Positions 16,501 through 61,989 of a DNA stretch of 64,000 nt are shown here, in pieces. The translations under genes and the position numbers were made by a program. Source of the stretch: Squalus acanthias (lineage: Eukaryota); assembly GCA_030390025.1 (NCBI GenBank), contig CM059431.1, forward strand, positions 145,764,001 to 145,828,000. Reading direction: 5' to 3'. Position 1 is the stretch's first letter. Each line of letters opens with the position of its first letter. The notes beneath the pieces were generated by a model that did no database searches, was not told where the DNA came from, and saw only the letters and a list, made by a program, of their open reading frames with translations.

Positions 16501-17117
16501 ATCCTAGGATACATAAGGAAGTGGCCCTAGAAATAGTAGATGCATTGCTGATCATCTTCCAACATTCGTTGGAAACTGGAACTGTACCCATGGATTGGAG
16601 GGTAGCTAATGTTACCCCACTATTCAAAAAGGATGGTAGAGAGAAAGTGGGGAATTACAGACCGGTAAGCCTGACATCGGTAGTGGGGAAAATGCTAGAG
16701 TCCATTATAAAGGATGTAATAGCTGAGCACTTGAAAAACAGTGACAGGATCGGACAAAGTCAACATGGATTTACAAAAGGTAAATCGTGCTTGGCTAATC
16801 TACTGGAATTTTTTGAGGATGTATCTGGGAAAATAGATAAGGGAGAACCAGTAGATGTGGCGTATTTGGACTTTCAAAAGGCTTTCGATAAGGTCCAGCA
16901 TAAGAGATTAGTGTGTAAAGTTAAGGCACATGGGATTGGTGGCAAAGTATTGACTTGGATAGAGAACTGGTTGACGGACAGAAAGCAGAGAGTAGGAATT
17001 AATGGGTCTTTTTCCGAGTGGCAGGCAGTGACTAGTGGGGTACCGCAGGGTTCGGTCCTTGGACCCCAGCTATTCACAATATACATTAATGATCTGGATA
17101 AGGGAACTAAATGTAGT

Positions 17118-18611
17118 GGCCCAGAAATTAAACACTGAGGGGGAAAAATTCAGCTGCTTGCGCCTCCCGTTAGCGCCTTAAGAGGGCGCTAATGGGGCGT
17201 AAAGCAGCTAACGCCCGGGCGCATCGCCGCCCACGCCTCCCGAAAAATTCAGCGGGAGGTTAGCGGCGGCGCCAGCCGGTAGCGCCCTGTGGCGCTGCAC
17301 CGCCGGCGATGACGTCATCGCCGTGCGCAGCACCCCGCTCGCGCTCCAGCCGCGATCTTCAGTCGCGCCCCCTGATTTACCACCAGACGCTATGTCCGAC
17401 GGGTTCAGGGAGGCGTACGTGCGGCCGGGGCGGCGATATTTAAAGGGGAGGTGGCAGGCGGCCATTTTTGTTGCTGGCCGCCTGCCAGCACCTGCCCCGT
17501 TGCTGTCCCCGGCCCCCGTGAAGCCCCCCCACCGTGAAGTGCCGGCTGCGCTCCAAGAGCGCTCCACTTCTCTTGAGTGCCGGGCTCTTTTGCCAGCACT
17601 CCCGATCCCTGGGGACCCAGCTGGGCCCCGGTTCGCGCTGCGCAGGGTCCCTCCCCTTTAAGAAGGGGAGGAAGGCCTGCAATACCGCGGCGCGACGTGG
17701 CGCTGCGGCACGTAGCGCCAGGATATTCCCTCGCAGCGCCCCAAGAGGGATGCGGGGTGCTTCCAGTGGCGCCCCGCTTCCCTCTTGGGGCGCAACCACT
17801 GAAGTTCCGGCGCGGGGCCGCTAATTTTTTCGGGGCGCTAAAAGTCGCGCCCCGGCGAGGTTAGCGCCCCAAATGGGGCGCGACTCAATTTTTACCCCTG
17901 AGTGTTCACGCGGGGGTAAGGCTTCCCCGCGATATATCACTCCGCGCCTATCATTTTCCTCCGTGCCCACTTGAACTTTAGTTTCAAGGCTGCAGCTGTG
18001 CAGTGCTTGCGTGACCCAGAGACGCAATTAGTTTGTGCGAGCTCTGGGATCACGTGATTCAGTTAGTGGCAGCACACCATCTTTCATTCATAGTTTTGAC
18101 AGGAAGACCTGTCAAAGCTGTGAATACTATACCCCCCAAAAGAACAGCTAAACCTCAATTAAATTTATCAAAAGCCATCACATTAATAAAATAAGTATAG
18201 TTAAATAAATTAACCACTTTAAACAAAAAATAAAATATTTGAAAAAATTTAAAATCTTTTTAAAAGTTATAAAAATAAACTTACCTTTCTTTATAGTCTC
18301 TAAAAAAGATAAACCTGTTGAAAAAAATTTAAAATACTTAATTAACTACTTACCTTGTTAAGAGGGTCTTACGCCTCCTTTCTTTATGTGTAAAATCTTC
18401 CTTGCTTACCTGCGCGTTCAAAGCACTAAGTGCACTGCGTGCGTACAGCCTGTAGCGCGCACGCGGTTCACTTAGGAACCGCCCCCTTTTGAAATCACGA
18501 AGTGCCGGTTTCCCGCGCATGCGCAGTGCATGCAGGAAACCGGCATTTGGAGAACTAAAACGCGAGAGTACACAGTGCGTACTCTCGCATATTAGGTCTA
18601 ATTTTCGGGCC
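17118..18611. mobile_element. Non-autonomous PIF/Harbinger-like DNA element (family A)
   Basis: TIRs GGCCCAGAAATTAAAC / GGCCCGAAAATTAGAC; 3-bp flanks AGT/AAT; removing it restores the CR1 RT sequence TGTAxTATCTCCAAG; homologous to 43529-44292. The superfamily is inferred from the TIR and TSD pattern. Confidence 0.85.
17139..17898. mobile_element. Nested GC-rich non-autonomous Harbinger-like element (family B)
   Basis: TIR GGGG(G/T)AAAAATT; TSD TGA at 17136-17138 and 17899-17901; ends homologous in inverted orientation to 51869-53125. Confidence 0.85.
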
Positions 18612-41287: not shown

Positions 41288-43528
41288 ATATAATTATAAA
41301 ACACCTTACGATTTTCCTCTATTTTGCCCGGCAATGTATTTTCATGCCCCCCCTTCGCTCTCCTAATTTCATTTTTAAGTACCCCCCTGCACTTTCTATA
41401 CTCCTCTAGGGCTGCCACTGTTTTTAGTCCTTTGTATCTGCCAAAAGCCTCCCTTTTTTCCCTAATCCATTCTTGTATGTCCCTTGACATCCAGGGTTCC
41501 CTGGGTTTGTTTGTCCCACCCTTGACGTTTACGGGAACATGTTTGTGTTGTGCTCTCTCTATTACCTTTCTGAAAGACTCCCACTGCTCTGATGTGGATT
41601 TTCCTACAAGGAGCTGATCCCAGTCCACTTTGGCCAGATCCTGCCTTATCATATTAAAAATCGAACTTCCCCCAATTTAGAACCTTTATTTCCGGTCCAT
41701 CTTTGTCCTTTTCCATGACTACCTTGAATCTCACCAGTTATGGTCACTTTCATCAAAATGCTCTGCTACTGACACTTCTACCACTTGCCCGGCTACATTC
41801 CCTAGAATTAGGTCCAGTACCGCCCCCTCTCTTGTAGGACTTTCTACATGCTGGCTCAAAAAGCTCTCCTGGTTGCACTTTAAGAATTCCGCACCTCTCT
41901 AAGCCTTTCACGCTCTGACTATCCCAGTTAATATTGGGGAAGTCGAAATCCCCTCCTATTATTATCCTATTATTTCTATACTTCTCTGAGATTTGCCTAC
42001 ATATCTGTTCCTCTATCTCACCCTGACTGTTTGGGCGCTGATAGTACACTGCCAGCAAAGTGCTTGCCCCCTTTTCGTTTTTAAGTTCTACCAATATGGC
42101 CTCATTAGAGGAACCTGCTAAGATATCATCCCTCCTTACAGCAGTAATTGACTCCTTGATTAATATTGCGACACCCCCTCCTCTTTTACACCCCCCTATA
42201 TCTCGCCTGAAGATTCTATACCTCGGAATATTGAGCTGCCAGTCCTGCCCCTCCCACAACCATGTCTCTGTGATCGCAACAATATCACACTCCCATGTGT
42301 TCATCAACACCTTCAATTCATCTGCCTTACTCGCAAGACTCCTAGCATTAAAATAAATGCCATCCAGCCTTGCCATACTCCCTTGTGCCGTTACATTTTT
42401 GCTCTGCCTTCCAGGCTGACTTGTTTTTTCCTCTATATTTGGCTGTGCATCACCTCCTACTATAGTTCCACTCCGTATCCCACCCCCCTTGCCAAGCTAG
42501 TTTAAACACCCCCCCCCCCAACAGTACTAGCAAACCTCTCCGCAAGGATGTTGGTCCCGTTCCGGTTCAGTTGCAACCCGTCCGACTTGTACAGGTCCCA
42601 CCTTCCCCAGAAGCAGACACGGTGATCCAGGAAACTAAAGCCCTCCCTCCTGCACCAACTCTTTAGCCACGCATTCATCTGCTCTATCCTCCTATTTCTA
42701 TACTCACGAGCACGTGGCACCGGGATTAATCCAGAGATTACAACCTTTGAGGTCCTGCTTTTTAATCTGCTACCTAGCTCCCTAGATTCTTGCTGTAGGA
42801 CCTCATCCCTCTTTCTACACATATCGTTGATACCAATGTGAGCCACGACCTCTGACTGTTCGCCTCCCCCTTCAGAATGCCCTGCAGCCGTTCAGTGACA
42901 TCCTTAACCTGGCACCAGGGAGGTAACATACCATCCTGGAGTCACATCTGCAGCCACAGAAACGTCTATCACTATTGCTCTCCCACACTTTTTCCTCCCC
43001 TCCTGTGCAGCTGAGCCACTCGTAGTGCCACAGACTTGGCTCTTGCTGCATTCCCTGAGAAACCATCTCGCCCAGCAGTATCCAAAATGGAAAATCTGTC
43101 CGAGAGAGAGATGGTCCCAGGGGACTCCTGCACTACCTTCCTAGTTCTTTTACTCTGTCTGGCGGTCACCCATTTCCTGTCTGCCTGTGCACACTTTACC
43201 TGCGTTGTGAACACCTCGTTAAACGTGCTATCCACGAAGATCTCAGCTTCGCGGATGCTCCACGGTGACTCCAGCCGCAGCTCCAGCTCCGAAACGCGGA
43301 TTTCTAGTAGCTGCAGCTGGAGACACTTCCTGCACACGTGTTCGCCCTGGACACCGAACGTGTCCCTGACTACCCACATAGCACAGGAGGAGCACTCCAT
43401 GCTGCCGAGCTGCCCTGCCATGTCCTACCCTTAATTTACTCCCTTTACTTCCATTAAATTAAAGGATATTAAATACACTAGGGACCATACATCCCTTTAA
43501 ACACAACTTACTCTAAACTAGAGACATT

Positions 43529-44745: not shown

Positions 44746-47700
44746 TTAAATTAGTATTATATTGGCCGGTGTGACAATGCGCTCCAGTCCTTGCGGCGCC
44801 CGCTGGTCGCAGAAGGCCTCGAGCGTGCCGGCAGACACCACGTCCTCCATCGCTAGGGACACCCGGGCGCGAACATAGCTGCGGAAGGGAGGCAGGCAAT
44901 CGGGCCGAACGACCCCCCCGACCGCCCACTGCCTGGCCTGTTTATGGCTACTTTTGCCAGGCCCAAGAGCCATCCCACAAGGAGGTCCTCCGACCTGCCC
45001 GCTCCCCTCCACACCAGGTGACCTTAGATCAGGAGCGTGGGACTGAAGGGCGATGAAAAATCGAGGAGCAGCCCCTTCAAATATTGAAAGAGGGGCTGCA
45101 ACCTCTCACATTCTATGTACATATGGAACACGGACTCCTCCAGGCCGCAAAAAAGACAGGCGGTCTGGGAGTCCGTGAACCTACTTAGAAACGGATTGCA
45201 CGGGACTGCTCCGTGCAACACCCTCCAGGCCAAGTCCCCAATAGAAAAGGGGAGGTCTCCCGCGTAGAGAGCCCTCCATTGGGGACCTTCACCTCCGCCG
45301 GACGGCAAGATGGCACGCCAAGGTGTGTCCGGACGGCAGGCGAAGATGAGAAAGTGGAAAGTGTGCAGGAGCAGACCATACAGGAAACCCCTCCATGCAG
45401 AACTGAAGGGCACGGAGGGCATTTCCCAGAGATGGCTCAAGTTGTGAGGCGCCGGTTCCCGAGAGGGGTTTCGGGGCCGCGCGCCGATGAGGAATTCCGT
45501 CTGAACTGGATTGCCCCACGTGCCTGAGCCTCCTCGATACACCTAGTGGAGTCGGGGCCCAGTGCCACTTTCAGCGACTCGATGGCTTTGGTCGCGCGCC
45601 AGCCCGCTCCTCCGCCATCGAGCAGGTCCCTGACTCTGATCACCTTGCCAGGCACAGCCCTGCCCTCCGCCAGCCACCCGATCCGTCGGACGTGGAGGTG
45701 CGGATTCCTGAGCAGCGGCTCCCGAAGGAGAGCCGCCACTCCTGACAGGGGAGAACTCCGCCTGGAGGCGAACTGGTTCCAGACCCATAGCAGTTCCTGG
45801 TAGAAGACAGGCAGCTCCCACAGGTAGGCTCGCGTGCGGCCCAATTCCACAAACAGGAGCTGCGTGTCGTAGTTGAGGCCATGCATCTGGCGGAAGAAAT
45901 ACTTCGCCAGCGCACACCATCTGGGAGGATTCTCGACGTAAAGGTACCTCTGCAGCGTCTGAAGACGGAAAGTCGCCGCCTGGGTGCGAAGGCACACCAG
46001 CGCCTGACCGCCCTCCCTAAGCGGGAGACACAGAACCGCGGCAGGGACCCAGTGCTTCCTTTTGTCCCAGAAGTCGATGAGCATCTTCTGTATCTTGGCG
46101 ACAAATGCAGGGGGAGGGACCAAAGTGACCAACCGGTACCACAACATGGCGGCCACCAGCTGGTTTATGACCAGAGCTCGACCCCTGTAGGACAACACTC
46201 GGAGCAACCCTGTCCAGCGTCCTAGGTGAGCGGTGACTTTGGCCTCCAGCTCTTGCCAGTTCGCCGGCCAGGTGTCCTCGGCAGGGCCGAGGTAGACTCC
46301 CAATTAGAGGAGGTGCGTTGTGCTCCAGGCGAAGGGCCTGAACTCCTCCGGCAGGGAGTCCACCCGCCACTGGCCCACCAGGAGTCCAGAACATTTCTCC
46401 CAGTTGATCCTGGCGGAAGATGCGTCCGAGTAAATCTGCTGGCATTCTCGTATCCTCCGCAGGTTGACGGGATCCGTGACCATGAGGAGCACATCATCGG
46501 CGTAAGCCGAGAGGACGACCTCCACGCCCGGCCCTTGCAGAGCCAGTCCCGTCAACCTCTTCCGCAAGAGGCGCAGGAAAGGCTCCACGCAAACGGCATA
46601 TAACTGACCGGACATGGGGCATCCCTGATGCACCCCCCTCCCAAAGCGAAGGGGCGCCGTCAAAGACCCGTTAACTTTAATCAGACACTCCGCGGCGGCG
46701 TACAAAAGTCAGATCCGGGCGACGAAATGCGTCCCAAACCCGAATGCGCGCAGAGTCCCGAAAAGATACTCGTGATCCACCCTGTCAAACGCCTTCTCCT
46801 GATCCAGGGAAAGGAATGCGACCAACAGACCAGTCCTCTGGGAAAGGTGGACCAGGTCCCGGACCAGATGGATTTTGTCGTGGATTGTCCGGCCCGGGAC
46901 CGTGTAGGACTGGTCGGGGTGGACCATGTGGGCCAGCACGGTGCCGAGGCGGGCAGACATGGCCCTGGCAAAAATGTTATAGTCCGTGCTGAGGAGGGAG
47001 ACCGGGCGCCAGTTTTTTAAAAGGCGGAGATCACCCCTCTTGGGCAGCAGGACGATGACCGCCCTGCGCCAAGAGAGGGGCATCTCCCCGGTCGCCAGAC
47101 TTTCCCCCAGGACCCACGCATAGTCGCCCCCCAAGACATCCCAGAATGCACTGTGGAACTCCACAGTCAGCCCGTCCAGCCCCGGGGACTTTCCCCTCGA
47201 GAGCTGGCCGAGGGCGCCGGTCAGCTCCGCCAAGCTTAGCGGAGCGTCCAATTCTTCGGCGCCCTCCGGGCCGACCTTCGGCAGGTCCTCCCACAAAACT
47301 CTGCACGCATCCTCACTGGACGGATCCGGAGAGAACAGAGCCCCGTAATAGGCTCGGGTCTCCGCGCTGATCCCCTCCGGATCCGAGACCAGAGATCCGT
47401 CGTCGGCCAGCAGCCCCAAGAGCTGCTTACGGACCCCTCGTCTTTTTTCCAGCGAGTAGAAGAAGGGGGAGCCGCGGTCCAGTTCCCGGAGGAACTGGAT
47501 CCGCGACCTCACGTATGCGCCTCGGGACCCGACCAGCTGCAGGTCCTTCAGCGCGCCCTTCTTCTCTTCGTACACCTTCTGCAGGGCCGGGTCTTCGACG
47601 ACTTGACCGAGACGGGACTCCAGGTCGAGCACCTCCCTCTCCAACCGCCCAACCCGGGCCTCCTGCCTCTTGGTCGACCCCCTCGCGTACTCTTGACAGA

Positions 47701-48531
47701 AGAGACGGACGTGAGCCTTGCCCACGTCCCACCATAGCCTCAAGGAGGGGAAGCCCCCCTGCTTCCTTCTCCAGTTGGCCCAGAACCGGCGAAACGAATC
47801 CCGGAACCGCACGTCCTCCAGCAGCAGGTTGTTAAAATGTCAGTACGCGGACCCCCCCGGCGCGCGCAACGGAGCGAGCTCCTGCCCACACCAGGTGGTG
47901 GTCCGTGCACGGCACCGTCCGCATGGAAGCCGCCGGAACGCAGGAGACGTACGCCCGGGAAATATAAAGGTGGTCGATTCTGGACCTTCCTCCTCCAGAC
48001 CCCACCCAAGTGAAGGCGCTGGAGTCGGGACGGGGATTTCGCCAGATGTCCACCAATTCGAAGGACCCGACCAGGTCCCTCAACTTCACCATCGCCGCCA
48101 GGCTTCGCGGAGGGCCCGAATGGTCCCTCGCCTCGAGTGTACAATTAAAATCCGCCCCGAGGATGACGCACTCGCCGACGTCGACGGTGCCCAGAAGAGC
48201 GGACACTTCTTCGAAGAAGCGCACTTGCTGCGCACCGGCCTGGGTGGCGTGCACGCCCACTACATGGAGCGGCATGCCCCCCAGGCGAACAGTGACCTGG
48301 AGCAAGCGGCCCGGCACATGCTCCTTGACCCCCAAGATCTGCAGTTGAAAATGCGGGGCCAGGAAGATAGCCACCCCACCGGAGCCACGTGGCCTCGTCT
48401 CCCGGAACGGTGTGAGTTTCCTGCAGGAAGCACACCGCATGCCTCCCTTCCTGAAGGGACGAGAAGTTATTAAATCTACGGCGTGCCTCTCTGCTGCCAT
48501 TGATGTTGAGGCTGGCTATGGTTATCTTCAT
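44746..48531 (-). pseudogene. Tx1 ORF2 (APE endonuclease, RT, zf-RVT)
   Basis: MKITIASLNING; NWRPVSLLSTDY; LDQEKAFDRVDH; QGCPMSG; AYADDV; CLFCGLEESVFHMYIEC. Confidence 0.93.
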
Positions 48532-48562
48532 GACAAGAGCATAGTGCAACCTCTACCTTACT

Positions 48563-50625
48563 CTAACGGGAGGAGGGAGCGCGGCCGCTAGTCGACCGCC
48601 ACTCCCTTCTAAGCCCAGCGAGGAACTTCCGGATCCGACGCCGCTCAGCCGGGCCCACGCCCCCGTCCGCGCCCATGGTTTTGACTGCGGCGCGGACGGA
48701 GCAAACGAGCAGCGCCAGATCCGACCATTTATCAACGGCCAGCCGGATTATATCCTGGCGACCCTGGCCCATTGCCACAAAGTCCCGGAGATCCACAACG
48801 GGGATGAGGGGGGACCCGGAGGGGGGCACGAGGGCATCCACCGCCTCGCTGGCGACGGATTCCATGTCATCCTCAGTGTCCTCCGCCGGGTCCCCGTCCT
48901 CCTCCGGGGGTTCGCCATTGGCCGGCCCTACCTTTGCCCCGATCCCACTCCCAGGATCAGCAGCAGAGTCCTCCTCCCTGGGCTCCTCCAGAGGCGCCGG
49001 GTCAGGAAGCGGCGGCGGCTCGGGCCCCTCCTCCGCCCCCGGCACCGGGGTGCATGGGGAAACCGGGGAGTACATTAGTGCCAGTTCCCCCAACACCCCC
49101 AGCGCCAACGTCGGAGACGGAGTCAGGTGGCCTTCCCCTTCACCGCCACCATCCTCTGACCCAGCGGACCGGGGACATTGATTGAATTGCTCCACCAGGT
49201 CGAGCAGCACCTGGGAGTAATCCTGACCGTATACGCCTGCCCCAGTCCCCAGGACGCCCGACCTGGCGAGAAAAACGGTTCAGTGTAATTTCCAACCGCG
49301 GGTAGTTCCGCTGCCCCCCCCACGAGCAGGGCCTCTTCCCCATCCCCTGGGAGGCACAGGCTGGACAGACTCATCTGTCGTGCCCTCCCGAGGGACAGGC
49401 GACCCCTCCCGGATGTCGGTGACGGTGTCGCTGGGGGGGGGGCGCAGCACCCGCGGCGGGCGACGACTCCCCTTGCGAGGGGTGCCCTGTTCCTCGCGGT
49501 CCTCCTCCTCATCCAGGGCGTTGCGCCTCCTTTTCAGTGCGGAGGGACACGAAGGTTGGGAGACCTCCATGTGTACCGAGGCCTCCATCGCCGCTCCCCA
49601 CTGTCGATCGGTTTGCTCGGGGGTCCCGGGCCCGGTCACGGCCGCAGGTCTCGATTTTGCCGCCTCGGCGGTTGCGGCCGCAGACCCGGGCACGAGGCCC
49701 TCCGCACTCTCGAACTACGCCACCACCCGCGCAATGTATGGGGGCGCAAGCTCGGGTAGATAGTCGTGTACGTCAAGGGGACCCGCCTGAAGGTGTTTGG
49801 TTTTCCTCCGCGCCTTCCTTCCGATCGGACGCTCCCCCTTCCCCTCCACCGGAGGCCGCGACGGCGTTGACCTCCGGCGTCGACCGCGCATCGGGTTTCG
49901 CGGACGCGCAGGACAGAAACAGGGGGAGGAGCGGCGGCGGCGCCAGCCTTGGCCGCCTCAGATGTTTTGGCGGCTGGAGGCGGGCAGTTTCTTCTTATGT
50001 GCCCCACCTCCTTACAGGCTTGGCACCGCACACCGTCCAACGTCCAGAAGACGCGGTAGGTGGTCCCCTCGTGTTGGACGCTAAATGCGCCTTCCGTGTC
50101 CTCCTCCCGCACCAGCTGGATAAACAGCTGGCACCGGAAGGAGAAGATGTGCCGGAGGCTGGCCACCCTACAGCCGAGCGGGATCGGATTAATCCCCGAC
50201 CTCACCTCCCCCAGTTGACGTAGGTGGGGGAAGAGGAGCTCAACTGGAACAAAGGGCGGGACGTTGGAAAGAACGAGTCGCTGCGCGGTGGCCTCGAGCG
50301 GATCCACCGGCAGGAAGGTCCCGCCCATGGTGAGCCCCTCGGTGACGGCCAGGGACACCGCCTGCTCCGACCCCAGGAAGAACACAGCCTTGCCATACAT
50401 TTTAGAGGCCGCTACGATGGCTGAGGGGCCGACTACCCAAGCCATGGCTTTAACGCAAGCCTCTATGGTCATGTTGGGGTGAGTGTAGCTCTTCACCCCC
50501 AGCTTTTTGGTCAGTACCCGGAAAGGCGATGGGGAAGCAGAAGCAGCGGGACCAGCTGTGGCCGTGGCTGCCACACCCGCATACGACCTTGCTTGCCCCG
50601 TCGCCGGCGAAGATGTGCTCGCCAT
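48563..50625 (-). pseudogene. Tx1 ORF1 (RRM-like region, CCHC, long acidic/Pro-rich tail), frameshifted
   Basis: ORFs 49636-50625, 49280-49693 and 48563-49210. Confidence 0.85.
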
Positions 50626-51868
50626 ACTGAGGTGCTATAGAGGGCTACACCCACCCCAAGTCACAGGCCGGGTGATGTTTGAAATGGCCTCGGTGGTGGG
50701 TTTTTTGGTCTCTTCCCTGAGCAGAGGGGGTTGTTTTAAAAATGAAGGCACACCTCTCCCTTTGATGATTGGAATTGGGAGAGGGGCCTTCTCCCCTCTG
50801 CTCAATTGGGTAATTAATAATATATAGAGGTGCCTCGTTAGAGAGAGAGAGAGGCAGAGAGAGAGAGAGAGAGAGAGGGGGGGGTGGGAAGGAGGAAGGC
50901 CGCACGGGCCTGTTCGCCACTCAGGATAGTGGGTGGGTGGGTGCTTCTGGGGGGGGGGCACTCTCCGATGTTAGTTATCGTCCTTGTTGATGTTCTTCTG
51001 GTGGGGGGAGAAGATGTCTTCACCTGGGGAAAAAAATAAAGCTGGAGATGCCCAGGCTCAGTCCACAACCAGGTCTTAACGATGTTCTAGATTGGAAAAA
51101 TGGGTTGATGACTTCGCCTGGGCAGCTCCAGCTGTCCCAGGTCAAGCAATAGGCAAGGGGTGCTTGTTGATGGTGTGTGTGGCCTAGTTATTGGCAAGAG
51201 CCACACACACTCACACACACCCCTTGCTGTTCCGGTTCCTTCTTCTTTCCTCCCTCCACCTAAAATACAAAGTCTTTTGGAGAGTGCCCCTTAACACCCA
51301 CCTGTAGATGTTTTCTCAATGGCTCTCCCGCCCTCCAAGCAGATGTTGGTCTTGTTTTCTTTCTCCCCTCTCTCCCTCTCCTGTAATGGAAACCAGTTGA
51401 GGAGGCAGTGATGGAATGGCTCCCCTCTGTTGGTTTTCTTTTCCCCTGGCCTCTGTGGTCTTTCTCCTCTTCTCTCTCTCCACTGGCACCTCAGCAGTAG
51501 TAATTGCTGTAGTAGTAGCAGCAGCAACAGTCGTGGTGGATAGGATCTCCACTCTGCCCTTCGTGGCTCGGGCTACTTCTTCTCTTCCACCCAACTCGCA
51601 GCACTCTGTTTAGACCACACTCAGTGCAAAATCGCACTTCAAAGCTTGTTTTTATAGGCCCTGAAACAAAGGAGACTTGCTGGGCCCAGTTACAGGAGAA
51701 CCAGTTTAATCTAGTTTCCCCAATTAACTGCCTTCAGCTGCTCTGAATTGTAGGCCCTGTATATCCCTTTATAACCCTTCTTAAAGCTGGGAAATTTAGC
51801 TTTTAAACATTAACAGTATATATGAAACAAACAAAAGTTTGATTTTAGCAAACAGTTAAGACTCCCTG

Positions 51869-53125
51869 GGGGAGAAATTCAGTATCGCCCCATTTGGGGC
51901 GCAATTATCCGTCAGGTGCAAAGCATAGAAGCATAGAAGATAGGAGCAGGAGTAGGCCATTCGGCCCCTCGAGCCTGATCCGCCATTTAATGACATCATG
52001 GCTGATCATCCAAATTCAGTACCCTGTCCCTGCTTTCTCCCCATATCCCTTGATCCCTTTAGCCTTAAGAAATATATCTATCTCCTTCTTGAATATATTT
52101 AATGAATTGGCCTCAACTGCCTTCTGTGGTAGAGAATTCCATAGGTTCACCACTCTCTGGGTGAAGAAATTCCTCCTCATCTCAGTCCTAAATGTCTCCC
52201 CCCTTATCCTTAGACTGTGACCTTTTGTTCTGGACTCCCCCGCCATTGGGAACATCCTTCCTGCATCTTTCCTGCATTAAGATTAGCGCCTGGCGCTAAT
52301 TATCGCCTCCAACTGCAAACTTGACTTTTATCATCCCTGGAGGTGATTGGAGCGCTAAATTAGGCGCTACACATGTGTCTTAAGGCACAAAGGCCAAGGA
52401 ACAAGGCGCTAACTCAGAGCGCTGGCGAAGCTCATGTGATGTCAGTCAGCAATGGAATCCAGACACAATGGCGCCGGCCTGTTCTTAAAGGGGAGGGTCG
52501 ATCTTGCTTTCCATCCACATCCTGCTCATTGCAGCCTTGAACCTCGGCTTGGAGAGAACTGCACATGAAATCTGCTGGAAAGAACAATGGAGAGTACCAG
52601 GGAAAGAGCTCAGAGTGCAGCCCCCACGGTCTCTTCTAAATCGATACAAGGAAGGGCAAATCAAAATGAACATGCAAAGTGCTGCTCAGTACCCAAAACT
52701 CCTTCACACAGCGTTGAATCTCTCCAGAAGTCTCTCTCTCTCTCTCTCTCTCTCTCAGAATGCGTGGTTCAAAAATGTCACCAACATAAAAAGGAAGGAA
52801 GCGGGTGCCTTTAAATAGCGCTCCCCCAGTCCCTTCCTGACTGCAAAACGCTCCCCTCAACCTGTCGTTGCTAGCGGCAGGCGGTAAGGCAGGTGGCACC
52901 ACTCAATATCCACTCCGGGGCGCTACCGGGGCATTGCGCACTCGACTGATGTCACGATCTGCAGGCGCAGGAGATCATGGCGGTAATGTTTAGCACCGCA
53001 GCAAAATGTCTAGTTAAATTTGTGAGCGGCGCAAACATCGGCGCGCACGGGCTAGTTGCTTTGCGCCCCATTAGCGCCCTCTTAAGGCGCTAACAGGATG
53101 CACAACCAACTGAAATTTTCCCACC
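51869..53125. mobile_element. Harbinger-like element (family B relative, inverted) containing a CR1 3' fragment
   Basis: Ends GGGGAGAAATT / AAATTTTCCCACC, flanked by CTG on both sides; subterminal homology to 17139-17898. Confidence 0.75.
51924..52268 (-). mobile_element. CR1 3' fragment
   Basis: ORF 52016-52255 ends IKGYGEKAGTGY; (CTATGCTT) tail. Confidence 0.92.
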
Positions 53126-53150
53126 CTGACTCAAACAACTCGCAGCACTC

Positions 53151-55362
53151 GGGAGGTGTGGGTCTGGGGGATGACCGGTGCCCGGGAGGTGTGGGTCTGG
53201 GAGATGACCAGTGCCCGGGATGTGTGGGTCTGGGGGAGCACCAGTTCAGGGAGGTGTGGGTCTGGGGGTTGACCCATGAAGTGTGGGTCTCGGGGATGAC
53301 CAGTGGCCAGGAGGTGTGGGTCTGGGGGATGACCGGTGCCCGGGAGGTGTGGGTCTGGGGGATGACCAGTGCCCAGGAGGTGTGGGTCTGGGGGATGACC
53401 GGTGCCCGGGAGGTGAGGGTCTGGGGGATGACCAGTGGCCGGGAGGTGTGGGTCTGGGGGATGGCCGGTGCCCGGGAGGAGTGGGTCTGGGGGATGACCA
53501 GTGCCCGGGAAGTGTGGGTCTGGGGAATGACCGGTGCCCGGGAGGTGTGGGTCTGGGGGATGACCAGTGGCCAGGAGGTGTGGGTCTGGGGGATGACCGG
53601 TGCCAAGGAGGAGTGGATCTCGGGGATGACCAGTGCCCGGGAGGTGTGGGTCTGGGGGATGTCCGGTGCCCGGGAGGTGTGGGTCTGGGGGATGACCGGT
53701 ACCCGGGAGGTGTGGGTCTGGGGAATGACCGGTGCCCAGGAGGTGTGGGTCTGGGGAATGACCGGTGCCCGGGAGGTGTGCATCTGGGGGATGACCGGTG
53801 GCCAGGAGGTGTGGGTCTGGGGGATGACCAGTGCCCGGGAGGTGTGGGTCTGGGGGATGACCAGTGCCCGGGAGGTGTGGGTCTCGGGGATGACCGATGC
53901 CCAGGAGGTGTGCATCTGGGGGATAACCAGTGGCCAGGAGGTGTGGGTCTGGGGGATGACCGTTGCCCGGGATGTGTGGGTCTCGGGGATGACCGTTGCC
54001 CGGGATGTGTGAGTCTCGGGGATGACCATTGCCCGGGATGTGTGGGTCTCGGGGATGACCGTTGCCCGGGAGGTGTGGGTCTCGGGGATGACCGTTGCCC
54101 GGGAGGTGTGGGTCTCGGGGATTACCGGTGCCCGGGAGGTGTGGGTCTGGGGGATGACTGGTGCCCGGGAGGTGTTGGTCTCGGGGATGACTGGTGCCCG
54201 GAATGTTTGAGTCTCGGGGATTACCAGTGCCCGGGAGGTGTGGGTCTGGGGGATGACCGGTGCCCGGGAGGTGTGGGTCTCAGGGATGACCGGTGCCCGG
54301 GAGGTGTGAGTCTGTTGGATGACCGATGCCCGGGAAGTGTGGGACTGGGGAATGACCGGTGCCCGGGAAGTGTGAGTCTGTGGGATGACCAATGCCCGGG
54401 AGGTGTGTGTCTGGGGGATGACCGGTGCCCGGGAGGTGTGTGTCTCGGGGATGACCGGTGCCCGGGAAGTGTGAGTCTGTGGGATGACCAATGCCCGGGA
54501 GGTGTGGGACTGGGGAATGACCGGTGCCCGGGAGGTGTGAGTCTGTGGGATGACCAATGCCCCTGTGGTGTGGGACTGGGGAATGACCGGTGCCCGGGAG
54601 GTGTGGGTCTGTGGATGACCAGTTGCCAGGAGGTCTGGGTCTGGGGGATGACCGGTGCCCAGGAGGTGTGGTTCTGGGGATGACCAGTGCCCGGGAGGTG
54701 TGGTTCTGGGGGATGAGCGGTGCCCGGGAGGTGTGGTTCTGGGGATGACCAGTGCCCGGGAGGTGTGGTTCTGGGGGATGAGTGGTGCCCGGGAGCTGTG
54801 GTTCTGGGGATGACCAGTGCCCGGGAGGTGTGGTTCTGGCGGATGAGCGGTGCCCGGGAGTTGTGTGTCTGGGGATGACCAGTTGCCGGGAGGTGTGTGT
54901 CTGGGGGATGACTGGTGCCCAGGAAGTATGATTCTGTGGGATGACCAATGCCCGGGAGGTGTGGGACTGGGAATGACCGGTGCCCGGGAGGTGTGTGTCT
55001 GGGGGATGACCGGTGCCTGGGAAGTGTGAGTCTGTGGGATGACCAATGCCCGGGTGGTGTGAGTCTGTGGGATGACCGATGCCCGGGAGGTATGAACCTG
55101 GGGATGACCGGTGCCTGGGAGGTGTGGGTCTGGGGGATGACTGGTGCCCGGGAGGTGTGGGTCTGGGGGATGACCAATGCCCGGGAAGTGTGAGTCTGTG
55201 GGATGACCGATGCCCGGGAGGTGTAGGTCTGGGGGATGACCGGTGCCCAGGAGGTGTGGGTCTGGGGGATGACCACTGTGGGAGGTGTGGGTCTGGGAGA
55301 TGACCGGTCCTCAGGAGGTGTAGGTCTGGGGAATGACCGGTGCCCGCGTTGTGTGGTTCTCG
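53151..55362 (+). repeat. 33-bp GC-rich satellite (CGGGAGGTGTGGGTCTGGGGGATGACCGGTGCC)n
   Basis: Direct reading; 11-aa periodic ORFs. Confidence 0.97.
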
Positions 55363-55469
55363 GGCAGCTGCACAGAGTGAACAACTGCGAGTTTGGTAAG
55401 TGTTGGAGTTTAAAGAGTTATTCTCTTTTAAAATCTCTTGTTAATTGCTAGTAGCTCTTAAGTAAGATA

Positions 55470-55880: not shown

Positions 55881-56815
55881 TGTTTAAGTTAAAATTTAAA
55901 CTTTACATTTTTAAGTTTCTTCAGGCTTAAGCAGAGACAAGCAAGCAAGCTCTCCTGCTGGAGAGCTGCGGTAAGTAGTTAATTAGCTAACAGGAATAAA
56001 CTGCTTTAAGAAACAGTAGCAGAGCTGTGGTGACTCATCTGTACAAATACAGGGGCCTGTAACTCATCTGACCAGTACAAATACAGGGGCCTGTGAGTGC
56101 AGCCAGCACTGAGTGCAGCGAGTCCAGAGTGAACAACTGGGAGTTTGGTAAGTGTGGAAGTTCGGTGAAGTCGGGGGAGGAGGTGCTTGCTTTTCGTAAC
56201 TTCTCCCGCAGAGCAGGGTGGACCTGAGCGGGAGCAGACCGAGGCCCGAGAGCGGGGAGAAAAGCAGCAGCGGACCTGCATCAACAGGTAGGTAGGCTCA
56301 GGTAGGCCTCAGACCAGCGTCGACAGCGGCGGAGGAGGAGCCTTTCTTTCTTTTTCTCCCACAGAGCGGTCGGCAGCGGGGAAGGAGGAGCGGACCTGGT
56401 TGGAGCGGCATTTAAGGAGGGTGGTGGCTTAAACCCGAGTTCCTACAGAGTAGGAACCCCCACCCGCCCTCCTCCTCTAACCTAGTAGTCTTTTAGCAGT
56501 CTAAAAACAGAGGTCACAAATTTTTTGGTCTCAGTTTCTTTTCAGCAGAGCAGGAACCGGGAGGAGCGGGAAGTCGGCGTAGGACCAAGGGGACACAAGA
56601 CCGGGAAGTCAGCGAAAGACCAGGGAGGTAAGACTAACTGGTAAGTACTTTCCTCAAACCTTCCTAGAAAGTACAACTAAAACTAGTGCGATTTGGTTAG
56701 TTTAAAAAGGAATAAGAGGAGTACAGTATACATTGGTCTAAGTAAGCTTCGGGAAAACAAAAGTCAATAAATAAACTAAAACTAGAAAATTAATAAGTAA
56801 TATAAGGGTTAAGTC

Positions 56816-57763
56816 ATGGCAGTAGAGCTCGGACCTGTGTCATGCTCCTCCTGTAACATGTGGGAAATCATGGACGCTTCCTGTGTCCCTGACAACCATG
56901 TGTGCGGGAAGTGTGTCCAGCTGCAGCTCATGTGGGACCGCATGACGGCCCTTGAGCTGCGGATGGACTCACTTTGGAGCATCCACGATTCTGAGAGGGT
57001 TGTGAATAGCACATTTAGTGAGTTGGTCACACCGCAGGTTAAGGCCAGAGTAGATAGTACATGGGTGACCAAAAGGCAGAGCAAGGGCAGGAAGGTAGTG
57101 CAGGAATCCCCTGGGGTTGTCTCCCTCAGCAACAGGTTCACCGCCTTAGGTGCTGTTGTCGGGGGGGATGACTCATCGGGGGAAGGCACCAGCAGCCAGG
57201 CTCATGGCACCATGACTGGCTCTGTTGCAAAGAAGGGAGGGAAAAAGAGTGGCAGGGCTATAGTAATAGGGGATTCGATTGTAAGGGGAATAGATAGGAG
57301 TTTCTGTGGTCGCGACCGAGACTCCAGGATGGTAATTTGCCTCCCTGGTGCAAGGGTCAAGGATGTCTCGGCGCGGGTGCAGAACATTCTGGAGGGGGAG
57401 GGGGAACAGCCAGTTGTCGTGATACATGTTGGTACCAACGACGTAGCTAAAAAAAGGGAAGAGGTCCTACAAGTAGAATTTAGGGAGTTAGGAGCCAAGC
57501 TAAAAAGTAGGACCTCGAAGGTAGTAATCTCTGGATTACTACCAGTGCCACGTGCTAGTAAGAGTACAGAGAACAGGATAGTTAGGCTAAATACGTGGCT
57601 TGAGCAGTGGTGTAAGAGGGAGGGTTTTAAATTTTTGAGGCATTGGGACCAGTTTTGTGGTAGGTGTGACCTATACAAAAGGGACGGTCTACACCTGTGC
57701 AATGATGGAACTGATGTTCTCGGGGTAAATTTTGATAAAGCAGTTCGGGAGCATTTAAACTAG
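56816..57763 (+). CDS. CR1 ORF1p: N-terminal zinc finger, coiled coil, SGNH/GDSL esterase domain (315 aa)
   Basis: CSSC...CGKC; IVIGDSIVRG; HVGTND; DGLH. Confidence 0.93.
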   Translation: MAVELGPVSCSSCNMWEIMDASCVPDNHVCGKCVQLQLMWDRMTALELRMDSLWSIHDSERVVNSTFSELVTPQVKARVDSTWVTKRQSKGRKVVQESPGVVSLSNRFTALGAVVGGDDSSGEGTSSQAHGTMTGSVAKKGGKKSGRAIVIGDSIVRGIDRSFCGRDRDSRMVICLPGARVKDVSARVQNILEGEGEQPVVVIHVGTNDVAKKREEVLQVEFRELGAKLKSRTSKVVISGLLPVPRASKSTENRIVRLNTWLEQWCKREGFKFLRHWDQFCGRCDLYKRDGLHLCNDGTDVLGVNFDKAVREHLN

Positions 57764-60705
57764 TATGGCAGGGGGCTAGAAACCCATGTAGTGAAATAGA
57801 GGAAAGTGAAAGGCAGACAGAAATAAATGGTAAAAAGGAGAGGAACAAAAAACAAAGGGCCAAACTAATTCATAAAAAATGTGAGCATAAAAAAAGCCTG
57901 AGGGTTTTATACCTTAATGCGAGAAGCATCAGGAACAAGGTAGATGAATTAGCTGTGGAAATAGAGGTTAATAATTATGATCTAATTGGGATTACGGAAA
58001 CATGGTTGCAGGGTGAGCAGGGCTGGGAGCTTAACATACAGGGGTATTCAGTATTTAGGAAGGATCGACAAAAAAGAAAGGGAGGAGGGGTAGCATTGCT
58101 GGTAAAAGAGGGGATAAATGCAATTGAAAGGAAGGATATTAACTCAGTTAATACAGAATCTATATGGGTGGAGCTAAGAAATAGCGAGGGGCGAAAAACA
58201 TTAATAGGAGTGGTATATAGGCCTCCAAATAGTAAAATAGAGGTTGGGGAGGGCATCACGAGGGAAATTAGAGAAGCGTGCAATAAGAGCACAGCTGTCA
58301 TCATAGGTGACTTTAACTTACATATAGATTGGACTAGCCTAATCAGTAAAAATAATGAGGAGGAGGAATTCCTTGAGTGTTTAAGGGATGGTTATCTGGA
58401 TCAATATGTCGAGGAACCAACTCGGGAACAGGCTATATTGGACTGGGTACTGTGCAATGAGAAGGGACTAATTAGTAATCTTGTTGTACGGGGACCCTTG
58501 GGTCAGAGCGATCATAACATGATCGATTTCTCACTCGAAATGGAGAGCGAAGAAATTGACTCAGAGACTCAGGTCCTGAATTTAAACAAGGGGAATTATG
58601 ATGCCATTAGACGGGAACTGAGTAGGTCTGATTGGACAACGTTCCTGGGAGGACTGGAGGTAGATAAACAATGGCAAGCATTTAAAGATAGAATGACAAA
58701 ATTGCAAAAATTGTTTATACCAATCTGGCATAAAAGGAAATCTAAAAAGGTGACTCAACCGTGGATAACAGGGGAAATTAGAGACAGCATAAAATCCAAA
58801 GATAGGGCGTATAAAATAGCCAAAAAACACGCCAGAGCGGAAGATTGGGAACAGTTTAAGATAGAGCAAAGGAGGGCAAAGGGCTTAATCAAGAAGGGCA
58901 AAATAGCTTACGAAAGCAAGCTGGCGGAAAACATAAAAACTAACTCCAAAAGCTTTTATAAGTATATCAAGAGGAAAAGACTGGTGAAAACCAAAGTTGG
59001 TCCATTGCAGTCAGATACGGGGGAATATATAATGGGAAATAAGGAAATGGCAGACCAACTAAATGCATACTTTGGGTCAGTCTTTACGAAGGAAGACACA
59101 AAAAACCTCCCTGGGATATCGGGAAAAATAGGGACATTGGCAAAGGAGGAACTGACGCAAATCAATATCTCTAAGGATATGGTGTTAAGGAAGCTAAAGG
59201 GATTGAAGGCGGACAAATCCCCAGGGCCTGATAACATGCATCCTAGGGTACTGAAGGAGGTGGCCCTAGAGATAGCGGATGCACTAAGCATGATTTTTCA
59301 GAATTCATTAGACTCGGGAACAGTGCCCATGGATTGGAGGGTAGCTAACGTTACCCCACTATTCAAAAAGGGGGGTAGGGAAAAAGCAGGTAATTACAGA
59401 CCTGTAAGCCTTACATCAGTTGTGGGCAAAATGCTGGAGTCCATCATTAAGGATGAAATAGCCGAGCACTTAGCAAATGGGGACAGGATAGGACAGAGTC
59501 AACATGGATTTACAAAGGGTAAATCGTGCTTGACTAATCTATTGGAATTTTTTGAGGGAGTAACTGGTAAAATAGATGGGGGAGAGCCAGTAGATGTGGT
59601 GTACCTGGACTTCCAAAAGGCCTTCGATAAGGTCCCACATAAAAGATTAGCATGGAAAATTGAAGCTCATGGGATAAAGGGGAAAGTATTGACGTGGATA
59701 GAGAACTGGCTGTCAGATAGAAAACAGAGAGTTGGAATAAACGGCTCATTTTCTGAATGGCAGGCAGTAACAAGTGGGGTACCACAGGGATCTGTCCTGG
59801 GTCCCCAGCTGTTCACAATTTATATTAATGACCTGGATCAGGGAGTCGAATGCAGCATTTCCAAATTTGCAGACGACACTAAACTAGGAGGGGGGGTGGG
59901 CTCAGAGGAGGAGACCAGGAAGCTCCAGAGCGATTTGGACAGACTGGGTGATTGGGCGGATAAATGGCAGATGCACTATAATGTGGACAAGTGCGAAGTT
60001 ATCCACCTTGGGTGCAGGAACGGGAGGGCAAATTATTATTTAAATGGCAATAAATTGGGAGAGGGGGAAGTACAGAGAGACCTGGGTGTTCTTGTACACC
60101 AGTCACTGAAGGCGAGCATGCAGGTGCAACAGGCGGTCAAGAAGGCAAACGGTATGCTGGCCTTCATAGCAAAAGGGTTGGAATACAGGAACAGGGATAC
60201 CTTGCTGCAGCTGTACAGGGCACTGGTGAGACCACACCTAGAGTACTGTGTACAGTTTTGGTCGCCTCATCTGAGGAAAGATGTTCTTGCCATGGAGGGG
60301 GTGCAGCGGCGATTCACCAGGCTGATACCAGGAATGGCGGGATTGACCTATGAGGAGAGACTATGTAGTTTAGGGATGTACACACTGGAGTTTAGAAGAT
60401 TGAGAGGGGACCTCATAGAAGTGTATAAAATTCTGACAGGTCTAGACAGATTAGATGCAGAAGGAATGTTTCCCTTGGCGGGTGAGAACAGAACTAGAGG
60501 ACATAATTTAAGGATAAGGGCTAAACCATTTAGGACAGAAATGAGGGGGAATTTCTTCACTCAGAGAGTGGTGAACCTGTGGAACTCATTGCCACAGAGG
60601 GCAGTGTACGCCAGCTCATTAAATATATTTAAGAGGGAATTAGATATATTTCTACAGGCAAAAGGGGTTAAGGGTTACGGAGAGAAGGCGGGGACGGGAT
60701 ACTGA
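57739..60705 (+). CDS. CR1 ORF2p: APE endonuclease plus reverse transcriptase; frame open from 57739, with no ATG before the first EN motif
   Basis: [51 protein letters not shown]; the track start at 57955 is a GTG inside the EN domain. Confidence 0.95.
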   Translation, partial: SSSGAFKLVWQGARNPCSEIEESERQTEINGKKERNKKQRAKLIHKKCEHKKSLRVLYLNARSIRNKVDELAVEIEVNNYDLIGITETWLQGEQGWELNIQGYSVFRKDRQKRKGGGVALLVKEGINAIERKDINSVNTESIWVELRNSEGRKTLIGVVYRPPNSKIEVGEGITREIREACNKSTAVIIGDFNLHIDWTSLISKNNEEEEFLECLRDGYLDQYVEEPTREQAILDWVLCNEKGLISNLVVRGPLGQSDHNMIDFSLEMESEEIDSETQVLNLNKGNYDAIRRELSRSDWTTFLGGLEVDKQWQAFKDRMTKLQKLFIPIWHKRKSKKVTQPWITGEIRDSIKSKDRAYKIAKKHARAEDWEQFKIEQRRAKGLIKKGKIAYESKLAENIKTNSKSFYKYIKRKRLVKTKVGPLQSDTGEYIMGNKEMADQLNAYFGSVFTKEDTKNLPGISGKIGTLAKEELTQINISKDMVLRKLKGLKADKSPGPDNMHPRVLKEVALEIADALSMIFQNSLDSGTVPMDWRVANVTPLFKKGGREKAGNYRPVSLTSVVGKMLESIIKDEIAEHLANGDRIGQSQHGFTKGKSCLTNLLEFFEGVTGKIDGGEPVDVVYLDFQKAFDKVPHKRLAWKIEAHGIKGKVLTWIENWLSDRKQRVGINGSFSEWQAVTSGVPQGSVLGPQLFTIYINDLDQGVECSISKFADDTKLGGGVGSEEETRKLQSDLDRLGDWADKWQMHYNVDKCEVIHLGCRNGRANYYLNGNKLGEGEVQRDLGVLVHQSLKASMQVQQAVKKANGMLAFIAKGLEYRNRDTLLQLYRALVRPHLEYCVQFWSPHLRKDVLAMEGVQRRFTRLIPGMAGLTYEERLCSLGMYTLEFRRLRGDLIEVYKILTGLDRLDAEGMFPLAGENRTRGHNLRIRAKPFRTEMRGNFFTQRVVNLWNSLPQRAVYASSLNIFKRELDIFLQAKGVKGYGEKAGTGY

Positions 60706-60815
60706 ATTGAAGGATCAGCCATGATCTCATTAAATGGCGGAGCAGGCTCGAAGGGCCGGATGGCCTACTCCTGCTCCTATCTTCTATGTATCTATGTATC
60801 TATGTATCTATGTAA

Positions 60816-61118
60816 CAAGAGAAAACGGCAGTGTGACGTCACAGGCAAGGCAGGTAAGTGATTGGTAGTGACTGTGGGCTTAGTTTTAAGTTAACATATA
60901 ACATATAACTAAATTTTAAAAACTAAACTTAATTTAATTAATTTAATAAACTAAACGAGGTAAATAATTTGATTAATACTAAACTAATTAATTAAACAAA
61001 TAAAATAATGGGAGAGGAGGAGATGTGTTGCTGCTGCAATATATGGGAGCTTGTGGACATATTTGTCCAGGGCGACTACATCTGCAGTAAATGTTTGCGG
61101 CTCGAGGAACTCCAGGCC
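60816..61118 (+). mobile_element. Fragment of another CR1: 5' UTR end plus ORF1 N-terminus
   Basis: TGACGTCA and CAGGTAAGT, then MCCCCNIWELVD...YICSKCLRLEEL. Confidence 0.75.
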
Positions 61119-61989
61119 TGTAATTGTGGCACCCTTCTCCAATCATCTACCAAACACACTTCACACAAGCTTCTGGGATTTGTGTTATTGTTAAGTGAAG
61201 TATTATCCAGGTTAAAGCTTCAACTGTTCAATCACACACAGTGTGCTGAACTCTTCCAGCACTGAATAAGAGGTTTTGAACACAGCCACAATTCAGCCTT
61301 GTATTCTCACCATTTACCCTGACACAGGATACCATGTAAGAAGTCTGGAGACATTTATCAGGAAGGGCAGTCCTGAGAATGAAGAGCTTTGTTTTATACT
61401 TAAGCTATCCATTTCTTAATTCTAAAACACAAACAGGAGCATTGGACTAATTATAAAGGAATTGGATATCCAAACATACTCAATAACTGAACATAAACAC
61501 AAACAACAGATATCTAGGATAAATGCACAAAGCGACAAAAGCAGATTGATATTTGCAGTCAGCAGGGGCAATATCAAATATTAATAAGATTTACCACCTG
61601 GTACTAATCTTGCTTCATCTTAGTTTTTGACAGAAGGCCAAGATCTAAGCCTCCTTAGCTGGACTAAAGCCCACATGATTTGATATTTCTAACCACAATC
61701 ATGGATCTGTTTAAAAGCTAATCATTCCTACTAGCAACTGTTCTACATCACACACACTCCAAACCTACCTCCATCTCCTTTGTCAAGAGTAGCAAAAAGC
61801 AGTGTGGAAATAGCCTCGAACATTTGATTATATCCAATTGTTAATGGTTAAAAACATAACTTTGACATGACAAAGATCTACTTCAGTGATAAGAACCCAG
61901 TAGTAAGCAAACTAGAATTTTCGAAAGAATTTCAGAAATTAAGAATTGAGAATGGGCCTTTCAGCCCATCAAGCCCAGTCTTTCCACAT

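Follow-up and report, generated by a model that had tools for sequence, protein, structure and literature searches.

CR1 outnumbers all other retrotransposons in birds, reptiles and sharks and is the dominant long interspersed nuclear element (LINE) of most non-mammalian vertebrates. The translation of the second open reading frame (ORF2) of LINEs is described as an open question in the review text searched (PMC3708506, PMC3894237), and the worked cases are reinitiation. SART1 and L1, like CR1, combine a bicistronic RNA with a low ORF2 output, and SART1 carries an overlapping UAAUG, whereas in the CR1 copy studied here no in-frame AUG overlaps the ORF1 stop and the two ORFs overlap in the -1 frame. 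Two Dictyostelium LINEs with apurinic/apyrimidinic (AP) endonuclease, TRE5-A and TRE3-A, are said to depend on a -1 frameshift to express ORF2 (PMC5911963), and LINE frameshifting as such is therefore not new; these elements belong to another clade and kingdom, whereas CR1 has a canonical heptamer kept across jawed vertebrates. Virus-like translational recoding is also reported in CR1-group LINEs as 2A StopGo (PMC3708506), which acts within ORF2 and mostly in elements without ORF1 (PMC3894237). Retroviral gag-pol and coronavirus 1a/1b share with the arrangement proposed here both the X_XXY_YYZ heptamer and the logic of an abundant structural protein with a rare polymerase fusion, and U_UUA_AAC, which an initial annotation of this DNA had recognized as a coronavirus slippery sequence, is indeed the site of infectious bronchitis virus (PMC5009743). 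In the present study, the ORF1/ORF2 junction was analyzed in an intact CR1 element of Squalus acanthias, whose genome is 3.7 Gb; the element lies in a 64-kb stretch of DNA (assembly GCA_030390025.1, contig CM059431.1, positions 145,764,001 to 145,828,000; hereafter the window). We propose that a -1 ribosomal frameshift at this junction probably yields an ORF1-ORF2 fusion, with a computed length of 1,296 residues for the focal element.

A slippery heptamer at the ORF1/ORF2 junction

The intact element (window 56816-60815) comprises ORF1, ORF2 and an 8-bp tandem tail. An SGNH esterase in ORF1, AP endonuclease and reverse transcriptase (RT) in ORF2 and a 3' microsatellite tail, all of which it has, characterize a type IV CR1 LINE, the esterase ORF1 class being defined in PMC4120745. 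Judged by its likeness to CR1-labelled junctions and by the esterase tree, it is an esterase-type CR1 LINE. ORF1 ends with CAT TTA AAC TAG, the heptamer is in X_XXY_YYZ register with ORF1, and the downstream ORF is open in the -1 frame, as in canonical frameshift sites. This frame opens five codons upstream of the heptamer and continues for 983 codons from it; its first Met is found at about codon 255, approximately 200 codons past the endonuclease start, so that an ORF2 protein begun there would lack most of the endonuclease domain. The heptamer, the TAG, the ORF1 end EHLN and the -1 frame of ORF2 were confirmed as initially annotated (Table 1). Three other, divergent TTTAAAC-TAR junctions had also been claimed, and all were found in place, including a copy at 14973 whose -1 frame runs into ORF2 without a stop, but the four junctions represent three lineages rather than four, because the copies at 6971 and 42497 are decayed, frame-broken members of one lineage. 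TTTAAACTAR occurs five times in the window against 0.23 expected, and four of these occurrences are the ORF1/ORF2 junctions. The fifth match of TTTAAACTAA, at 56697-56706 on the minus strand, is antisense within an AT-rich 5' untranslated region (UTR) and is not a junction.

Herein, we propose that a minority of ribosomes slip back one base at U_UUA_AAC, where tRNA-Leu and tRNA-Asn would re-pair from UUA/AAC to UUU/AAA, giving an ORF1-linker-endonuclease-RT fusion. The majority would terminate and release the 315-aa ORF1 protein, and the few that slip would read ...EHLN-LVWQG.... The stop codon adjoining the heptamer, an arrangement also present in Rous sarcoma virus and some plant viruses, could hold the ribosome, and the pause would most likely come from this stop and/or from the G-rich tract about 6 nt downstream rather than from a classical pseudoknot. 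The outcome might be a high ratio of ORF1 protein to RT, with the RT tethered to the ORF1 protein assembly in a Gag-Pol-like manner. Unlike gag-pol and coronavirus sites, the junction has a G-rich tract where a conserved stem-loop or pseudoknot was sought and not found, and no protease domain was detected in the domain search of window proteins, so that the fusion may stay uncut. In its widest form, the proposal would be that all esterase-bearing CR1s make RT only as an uncleaved fusion, through a frameshift that pre-dates jawed vertebrates, dispenses with a classical pseudoknot, is driven by the stop codon or the G tract and is so far undescribed; we regard the case for and against this extension as evenly balanced.

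If true, a conserved CR1 -1 frameshift would be a third route to LINE ORF2 translation. The CR1 replicase would be a fusion of about 1,300 residues carrying a membrane-binding esterase domain, and the Gag analogy for the ORF1 protein would be strengthened. The construction of active CR1 elements should then avoid an added AUG or the separation of the ORFs, and the junction might serve as a natural test case for frameshifting stimulated by a stop codon or a G tract. The literature was searched as text (PMC13343379, PMC3905857, PMC5009743, PMC3708506, PMC3894237, PMC2734521, PMC11303007, PMC4120745, PMC5911963 and the supplement of PMC4316615). The term "frameshift" had no match in the CR1 papers so searched, and a proposal of CR1 frameshifting was not found in this open full-text literature, whose scope ends short of the 1997 chicken and turtle CR1 descriptions and the Repbase notes.

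Conservation of the heptamer

The replacement of U_UUA_AAC by G_GGA_AAC in distant relatives is the strongest single result of the sequence comparison, being predicted neither by protein constraint nor by reinitiation, and it lends support to the fusion by frameshifting that had initially been suggested for CR1; the refuting conditions named with that suggestion were checked at the sequence level, and none held. Five distant loci were taken from metagenome contigs, other searches for related loci having yielded none, and four of the five reach the ORF1 end; relative to the window element they are about 32% identical in ORF1 and about 41% in ORF2. L091 and L092 end in G_GGA_AAC_UAG and L094 in G_GGA_AAC_UAC_UAG, which places G_GGA_AAC in three of the four loci. 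They branch apart in the esterase tree (built quickly, with no bootstrap and with the C-termini excluded) and have another residue pair that again spells a top-ranked slippery heptamer at the same spot. In both loci that include ORF2 (L091 and L095), ORF2 is in the -1 frame, with open linkers of 70 and 87 codons; no Met precedes the endonuclease in L095 and several do so in L091. On mammalian ribosomes, U_UUA_AAC and G_GGA_AAC both rank with the heptamers most prone to slippage (PMC5009743).

The Leu-Asn codons at the ORF1 end do not vary freely across lineages. Among nine natural lineage-representative copies, 59-98% identical, the last Leu is TTA in all nine, whereas all 11 other invariant Leu columns are mixed, and the last Asn is AAC in eight. 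In the codon ahead of the last Leu (GGT, GCT, CAT or GAT), the third base is T in every copy. At the protein level, 250 related proteins were collected, 145 of which have a DGxH block 20-40 residues from the end. LN is C-terminal in 68 of the 104 esterases of CR1-like type, including a named alligator protein, and nine others end in GN (Q-G-N or S-G-N). The ZfL2-1-type (L2) ORF1 protein (PDB 4C1B) has an SGNH esterase domain as the focal ORF1 does, but its DGxHP group, compared by protein alone, differs from the CR1-like type in ending with LN in one protein of 41. The residues K, E, Q, M and W have no codon ending in U, and they precede LN in 1 of the 68 proteins; the corresponding counts are 30 one residue further upstream and 21 two residues further upstream (nominal p = 7e-5, which is not a real probability because the rows are related). 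Conservation at the heptamer goes beyond what the protein needs, with the caveats of relatedness and of scoring by eye. Seven more distant esterase ORF1s (P0189, P0202, P0218, P0220, P0226, P0245 and P0204) end in or near KN, FF, FL or GF; these pairs, known from proteins alone, could spell A_AAA_AAC, U_UUU_UUN or G_GGU_UUU. One LN-ending protein, P0012, is filed as a Pseudomonas aeruginosa SGNH hydrolase, but it is a shark-type CR1 ORF1 and most likely reflects host contamination.

DNA from vertebrates other than sharks came only from the supplement of PMC13343379, which was available as the first 400 letters of each consensus. In this part of the supplement, TTTAAACTA occurs 23 times, with 17 occurrences judged by eye as ORF1/ORF2 junctions, and one further junction, TTTAAAC-TGA, brings the set to 18 junctions under 12 species labels, with TAA, TAG or TGA as the stop. 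The labels are AllMis, CroPor, PogVit, AquCat, LatCha, AmiCal, AldAff, CalMil, HypSab, PriPec, ScyCan and SquAca. We take them to denote crocodilians, a lizard, a frog, the coelacanth, ray-finned fishes, a chimaera, rays and sharks. Nine synonymous or first-base variant words, a selection from the possible synonymous variants, were found at 32 places in the same text and by eye at no junction. On these comparisons, the feature is real and deeply conserved.

Copies were also sampled within the S. acanthias genome. ORF1 ends were anchored by tblastn, the queries being esterase fragments without the last 19 residues, and the best heptamer match was taken within a 20-nt window; the sample comprised the 64-kb window, 60 ten-kb tiles and 118 search loci, minus two duplicate loci and the ends near edges. 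Exact TTTAAAC was present at 116 of 128 anchored ORF1 ends, followed by TAA in 80, TAG in 35 and TGA in 1. In the 50 contiguous tiles alone, 14 of 19 ends carried it, and the remaining five were three point-mutated and two disrupted copies. The endonuclease motif was detectable for 110 ends, 101 of which had an intact heptamer, and it lay in the -1 frame in 91 of these 101; the linker was open in 82 of the 91 copies, 61 without and 21 with a Met. Across the genome, TTTAAACTARNNTGG is matched 24,659 times and its reversed control 239 times, a difference that reflects copy number and is not independent evidence. Similarly, with the heptamer wildcarded in the focal family, TTTAAAC was found in all of the first 100 of 1,939 matches, which reflects only the youth of this family (150 of 150 matches scored at the ORF1 end are 98-100% identical).

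A lineage ending in DRALN (13 copies) was considered as a counter-example with a closed linker and rejected, since the alignment shows an unstable G run in old copies; the frame is open through this run in the three copies with the shortest run, each broken downstream by a lesion of its own. In some natural copies, L183 (G000:C10:954800-959300) and also L176-L186, the run that precedes the heptamer is one G longer and ORF1 is thereby joined to ORF2 in one reading frame, which in L183 has about 1,290 codons. Such in-frame fusions were rejected as a mobile subfamily: they are present in 15 of 35 copies (partly chosen for this trait) and require 13 changes on the tree, compared with a shuffled mean of 11.6. 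Scattered in this way, they arose repeatedly and are uninformative on function.

The linker and the rival explanations

The linker between the slip site and the endonuclease is 45-71 codons long, or about 87 in one older lineage, and the median identity of linkers between lineages is 20%. Among 16 copies hand-picked mostly for intactness, the -1 frame is stop-free in 13, and each other frame contains 1-10 stops; when linkers are shuffled, the -1 frame stays open in 0-13% of cases. That unrelated linkers are each kept open back to the heptamer fits translation from the heptamer and not from a start near the endonuclease. A 2A-like motif (DxExNPGP) was sought by eye in the sampled linker translations, and no NPGP was seen; in this respect CR1 differs from the 2A StopGo elements. 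Downstream of the heptamer, each of the 15 junctions compared from this genome has a G-rich tract (38-57% G between nt 4 and 24), and this tract or a two-tier G-quadruplex is a possible stimulator. Natural use of a G-quadruplex was anticipated but unknown according to a 2016 review (PMC5009743).

Several observations weigh against frameshifting. In-frame AUGs are present within the 21 open linkers with a Met noted above; the initial statement that no ATG precedes the endonuclease motif YLNARS holds for the focal copy but is not universal, as is demonstrated by these linkers and by the copy at 14973, where an ATG in the ORF2 frame follows 132 nt from the start of the heptamer. Among the distant loci, L091 has one AUG four codons upstream of its heptamer and two more immediately ahead of the endonuclease, and the fourth, L095, has only an imperfect G_AAU_UUU_UAG. 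One codon is also kept in seven other invariant columns of 57, which makes the codon test alone moderate, and the residues K/E/Q/M/W are also low at positions -6 to -8 (5, 3 and 7 of 68). The genome sample is biased in that a few young families dominate, ten tiles were chosen for their proximity to pattern hits and four families have more than their share of the search loci. The downstream stem-loop that had been hoped for was not found: no stable conserved stem-loop or pseudoknot was seen 5-9 nt downstream by folding, none of it pseudoknot-capable, the folding z was above -2 at 16 of 18 junctions, and for the focal 100 nt it was -0.39. A two-tier form of the suggested downstream G-quadruplex is predicted at 9 of the 15 junctions from this genome, with its start 6-8 nt after the heptamer, but not at the focal junction. 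Finally, no long-range partner for the G tract is shared, the best partners lying at differing places in 14 elements in a comparison without a shuffle control.

Termination followed by reinitiation, with or without an AUG, is the main rival, because some lineages have in-frame AUGs and because the overlap of CUA or CUG with the stop mimics the geometry of an AUGA overlap. Ribosomes would then restart in the -1 frame on this CUA/CUG or on a later AUG, and a separate ORF2 protein would be made, as in SART1 and L1. AUG-independent restart of L1 ORF2 was reportedly described by Alisch in 2006; the fixed position of the stop in CR1 also speaks for reinitiation, and reinitiation at UAAUG is the mechanism shown for SART1 (PMC3708506). 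However, reinitiation could proceed without U_UUA_AA ahead of the stop and without its exchange for G_GGA_AA, and CUA differs from AUG at two positions. The ATG right after the focal ORF1 stop is out of frame and closed after four codons, and an AUG overlapping or adjoining the stop in the ORF2 frame, as in SART1, was not found in the focal copy or the sampled copies. The check for an alternative start likewise revealed no conserved start codon among the linkers compared, and the Leu that lies four codons upstream of the endonuclease motif is encoded by CTG, TTG, TTA or CTA. We consider this route to ORF2 unlikely. The heptamer might instead be a by-product of a Leu-Asn end kept for the esterase, as part of its fold or as a C-terminal signal, with ORF2 reached through an internal promoter or entry resembling an internal ribosome entry site. 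In most vertebrate-type proteins LN and the DGLH motif are a constant 26 residues apart, which is consistent with such a constraint, as are the seven other single-codon columns within this genome. Yet the sampled vertebrates share the codons and not the residues alone, the base ahead of the Leu codon stays constant although the residue there varies, and relatives exchange Leu for Gly exactly as the heptamer swap predicts. The match to the solved L2-type esterase does not extend to LN, since it stops at profile position 306 of 310, and LN is missing from 40 of the 41 DGxHP-type esterases; a purely protein-level explanation is in our view very improbable.

A spliced subgenomic mRNA for ORF2 would join a donor in the 5' UTR or ORF1 to CAG|G after the stop, with TTTAAACTAA as the branch-point region. 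TGGCAG|G does follow the stop in many lineages and GGTAAG donor-like words are present in the 5' UTR; two of them, at window 56620-56650, are also seen in several shark CR1 consensus 5' ends, and a 5' UTR intron is possible. Against a junction acceptor, a pyrimidine tract is lacking, very little space is left and the CAG is missing in several lineages. An RNA spliced to encode ORF2 should be copied in cis, yet the downstream 22-mer, found in 606 genomic copies, is still preceded by the unspliced bases in 591 of them, so that at most 15 of 606 focal-family copies could be spliced at the CAG after the heptamer. In public read contigs from four runs, two of them guessed to be RNA, no listed joint ends at the junction, a result that can neither show nor exclude splicing or expression. 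Splicing is very unlikely as the source of ORF2, and -1 frameshifting at the heptamer is retained as the preferred explanation.

The element and its surroundings

Where a source is named, the relatives of ORF1 are for the most part proteins of sharks and rays. The esterase domain of ORF1 is a PF13472 match among the window proteins, and a profile of the ORF1 family hits 4C1B, the structure of a ZfL2-1-type ORF1 esterase, with E 1e-39.

Table 1. Positions of the junctions and of the parts of the focal CR1 element in the window
Feature	Position	Strand	Remarks
Slippery heptamer U_UUA_AAC	57754..57760	+	X_XXY_YYZ register with ORF1
ORF1 stop TAG	57761..57763	+	Adjoins heptamer; TAA or TGA in other copies; read as CUA/CUG (Leu) in -1 frame
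-1 frame linker, slip site to endonuclease	57760..57909	+	50 codons (LVWQG...SLRVL); 0 stops, 0 Met
G-rich tract TGGCAGGGGG	57766..57775	+	Sole common downstream feature; candidate stimulator
Second junction, TTTAAAC-TAA	14973..14982	+	Open -1 frame reaching ORF2 (14958-17138); ORF1 frame-broken in this copy
Third junction, TTTAAAC-TAA	6971..6980	+	Decayed copy
Fourth junction, TTTAAAC-TAG	42497..42506	-	Decayed copy; lineage shared with 6971
ORF1	56816..57763	+	315 aa; Cys-rich N-terminus plus SGNH/GDSL esterase domain; end ...VREHLN-stop
ORF2 frame, stop to stop	57739..60705	+	AP endonuclease and RT; first in-frame ATG near 58519
3' UTR	60706..60815	+	Terminal 8-bp tandem tail (ATCTATGT)n, CR1-like; read by eye

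A second CR1 piece, with a 5' UTR and the start of an ORF1, adjoins the tail of the focal element at window 60815-61120. Other repeats are also present in the window. Broken pieces of a gag with a CCHC knuckle and of RT, resembling a long terminal repeat retroelement, lie at 78-2343 on the minus strand, and a broken Tx1/L1-like element (family name assigned by eye) with ORF1, endonuclease and RT pieces lies at 45024-50634 on the same strand. A long tandem repeat at 53082-55440 has open frames on both strands.

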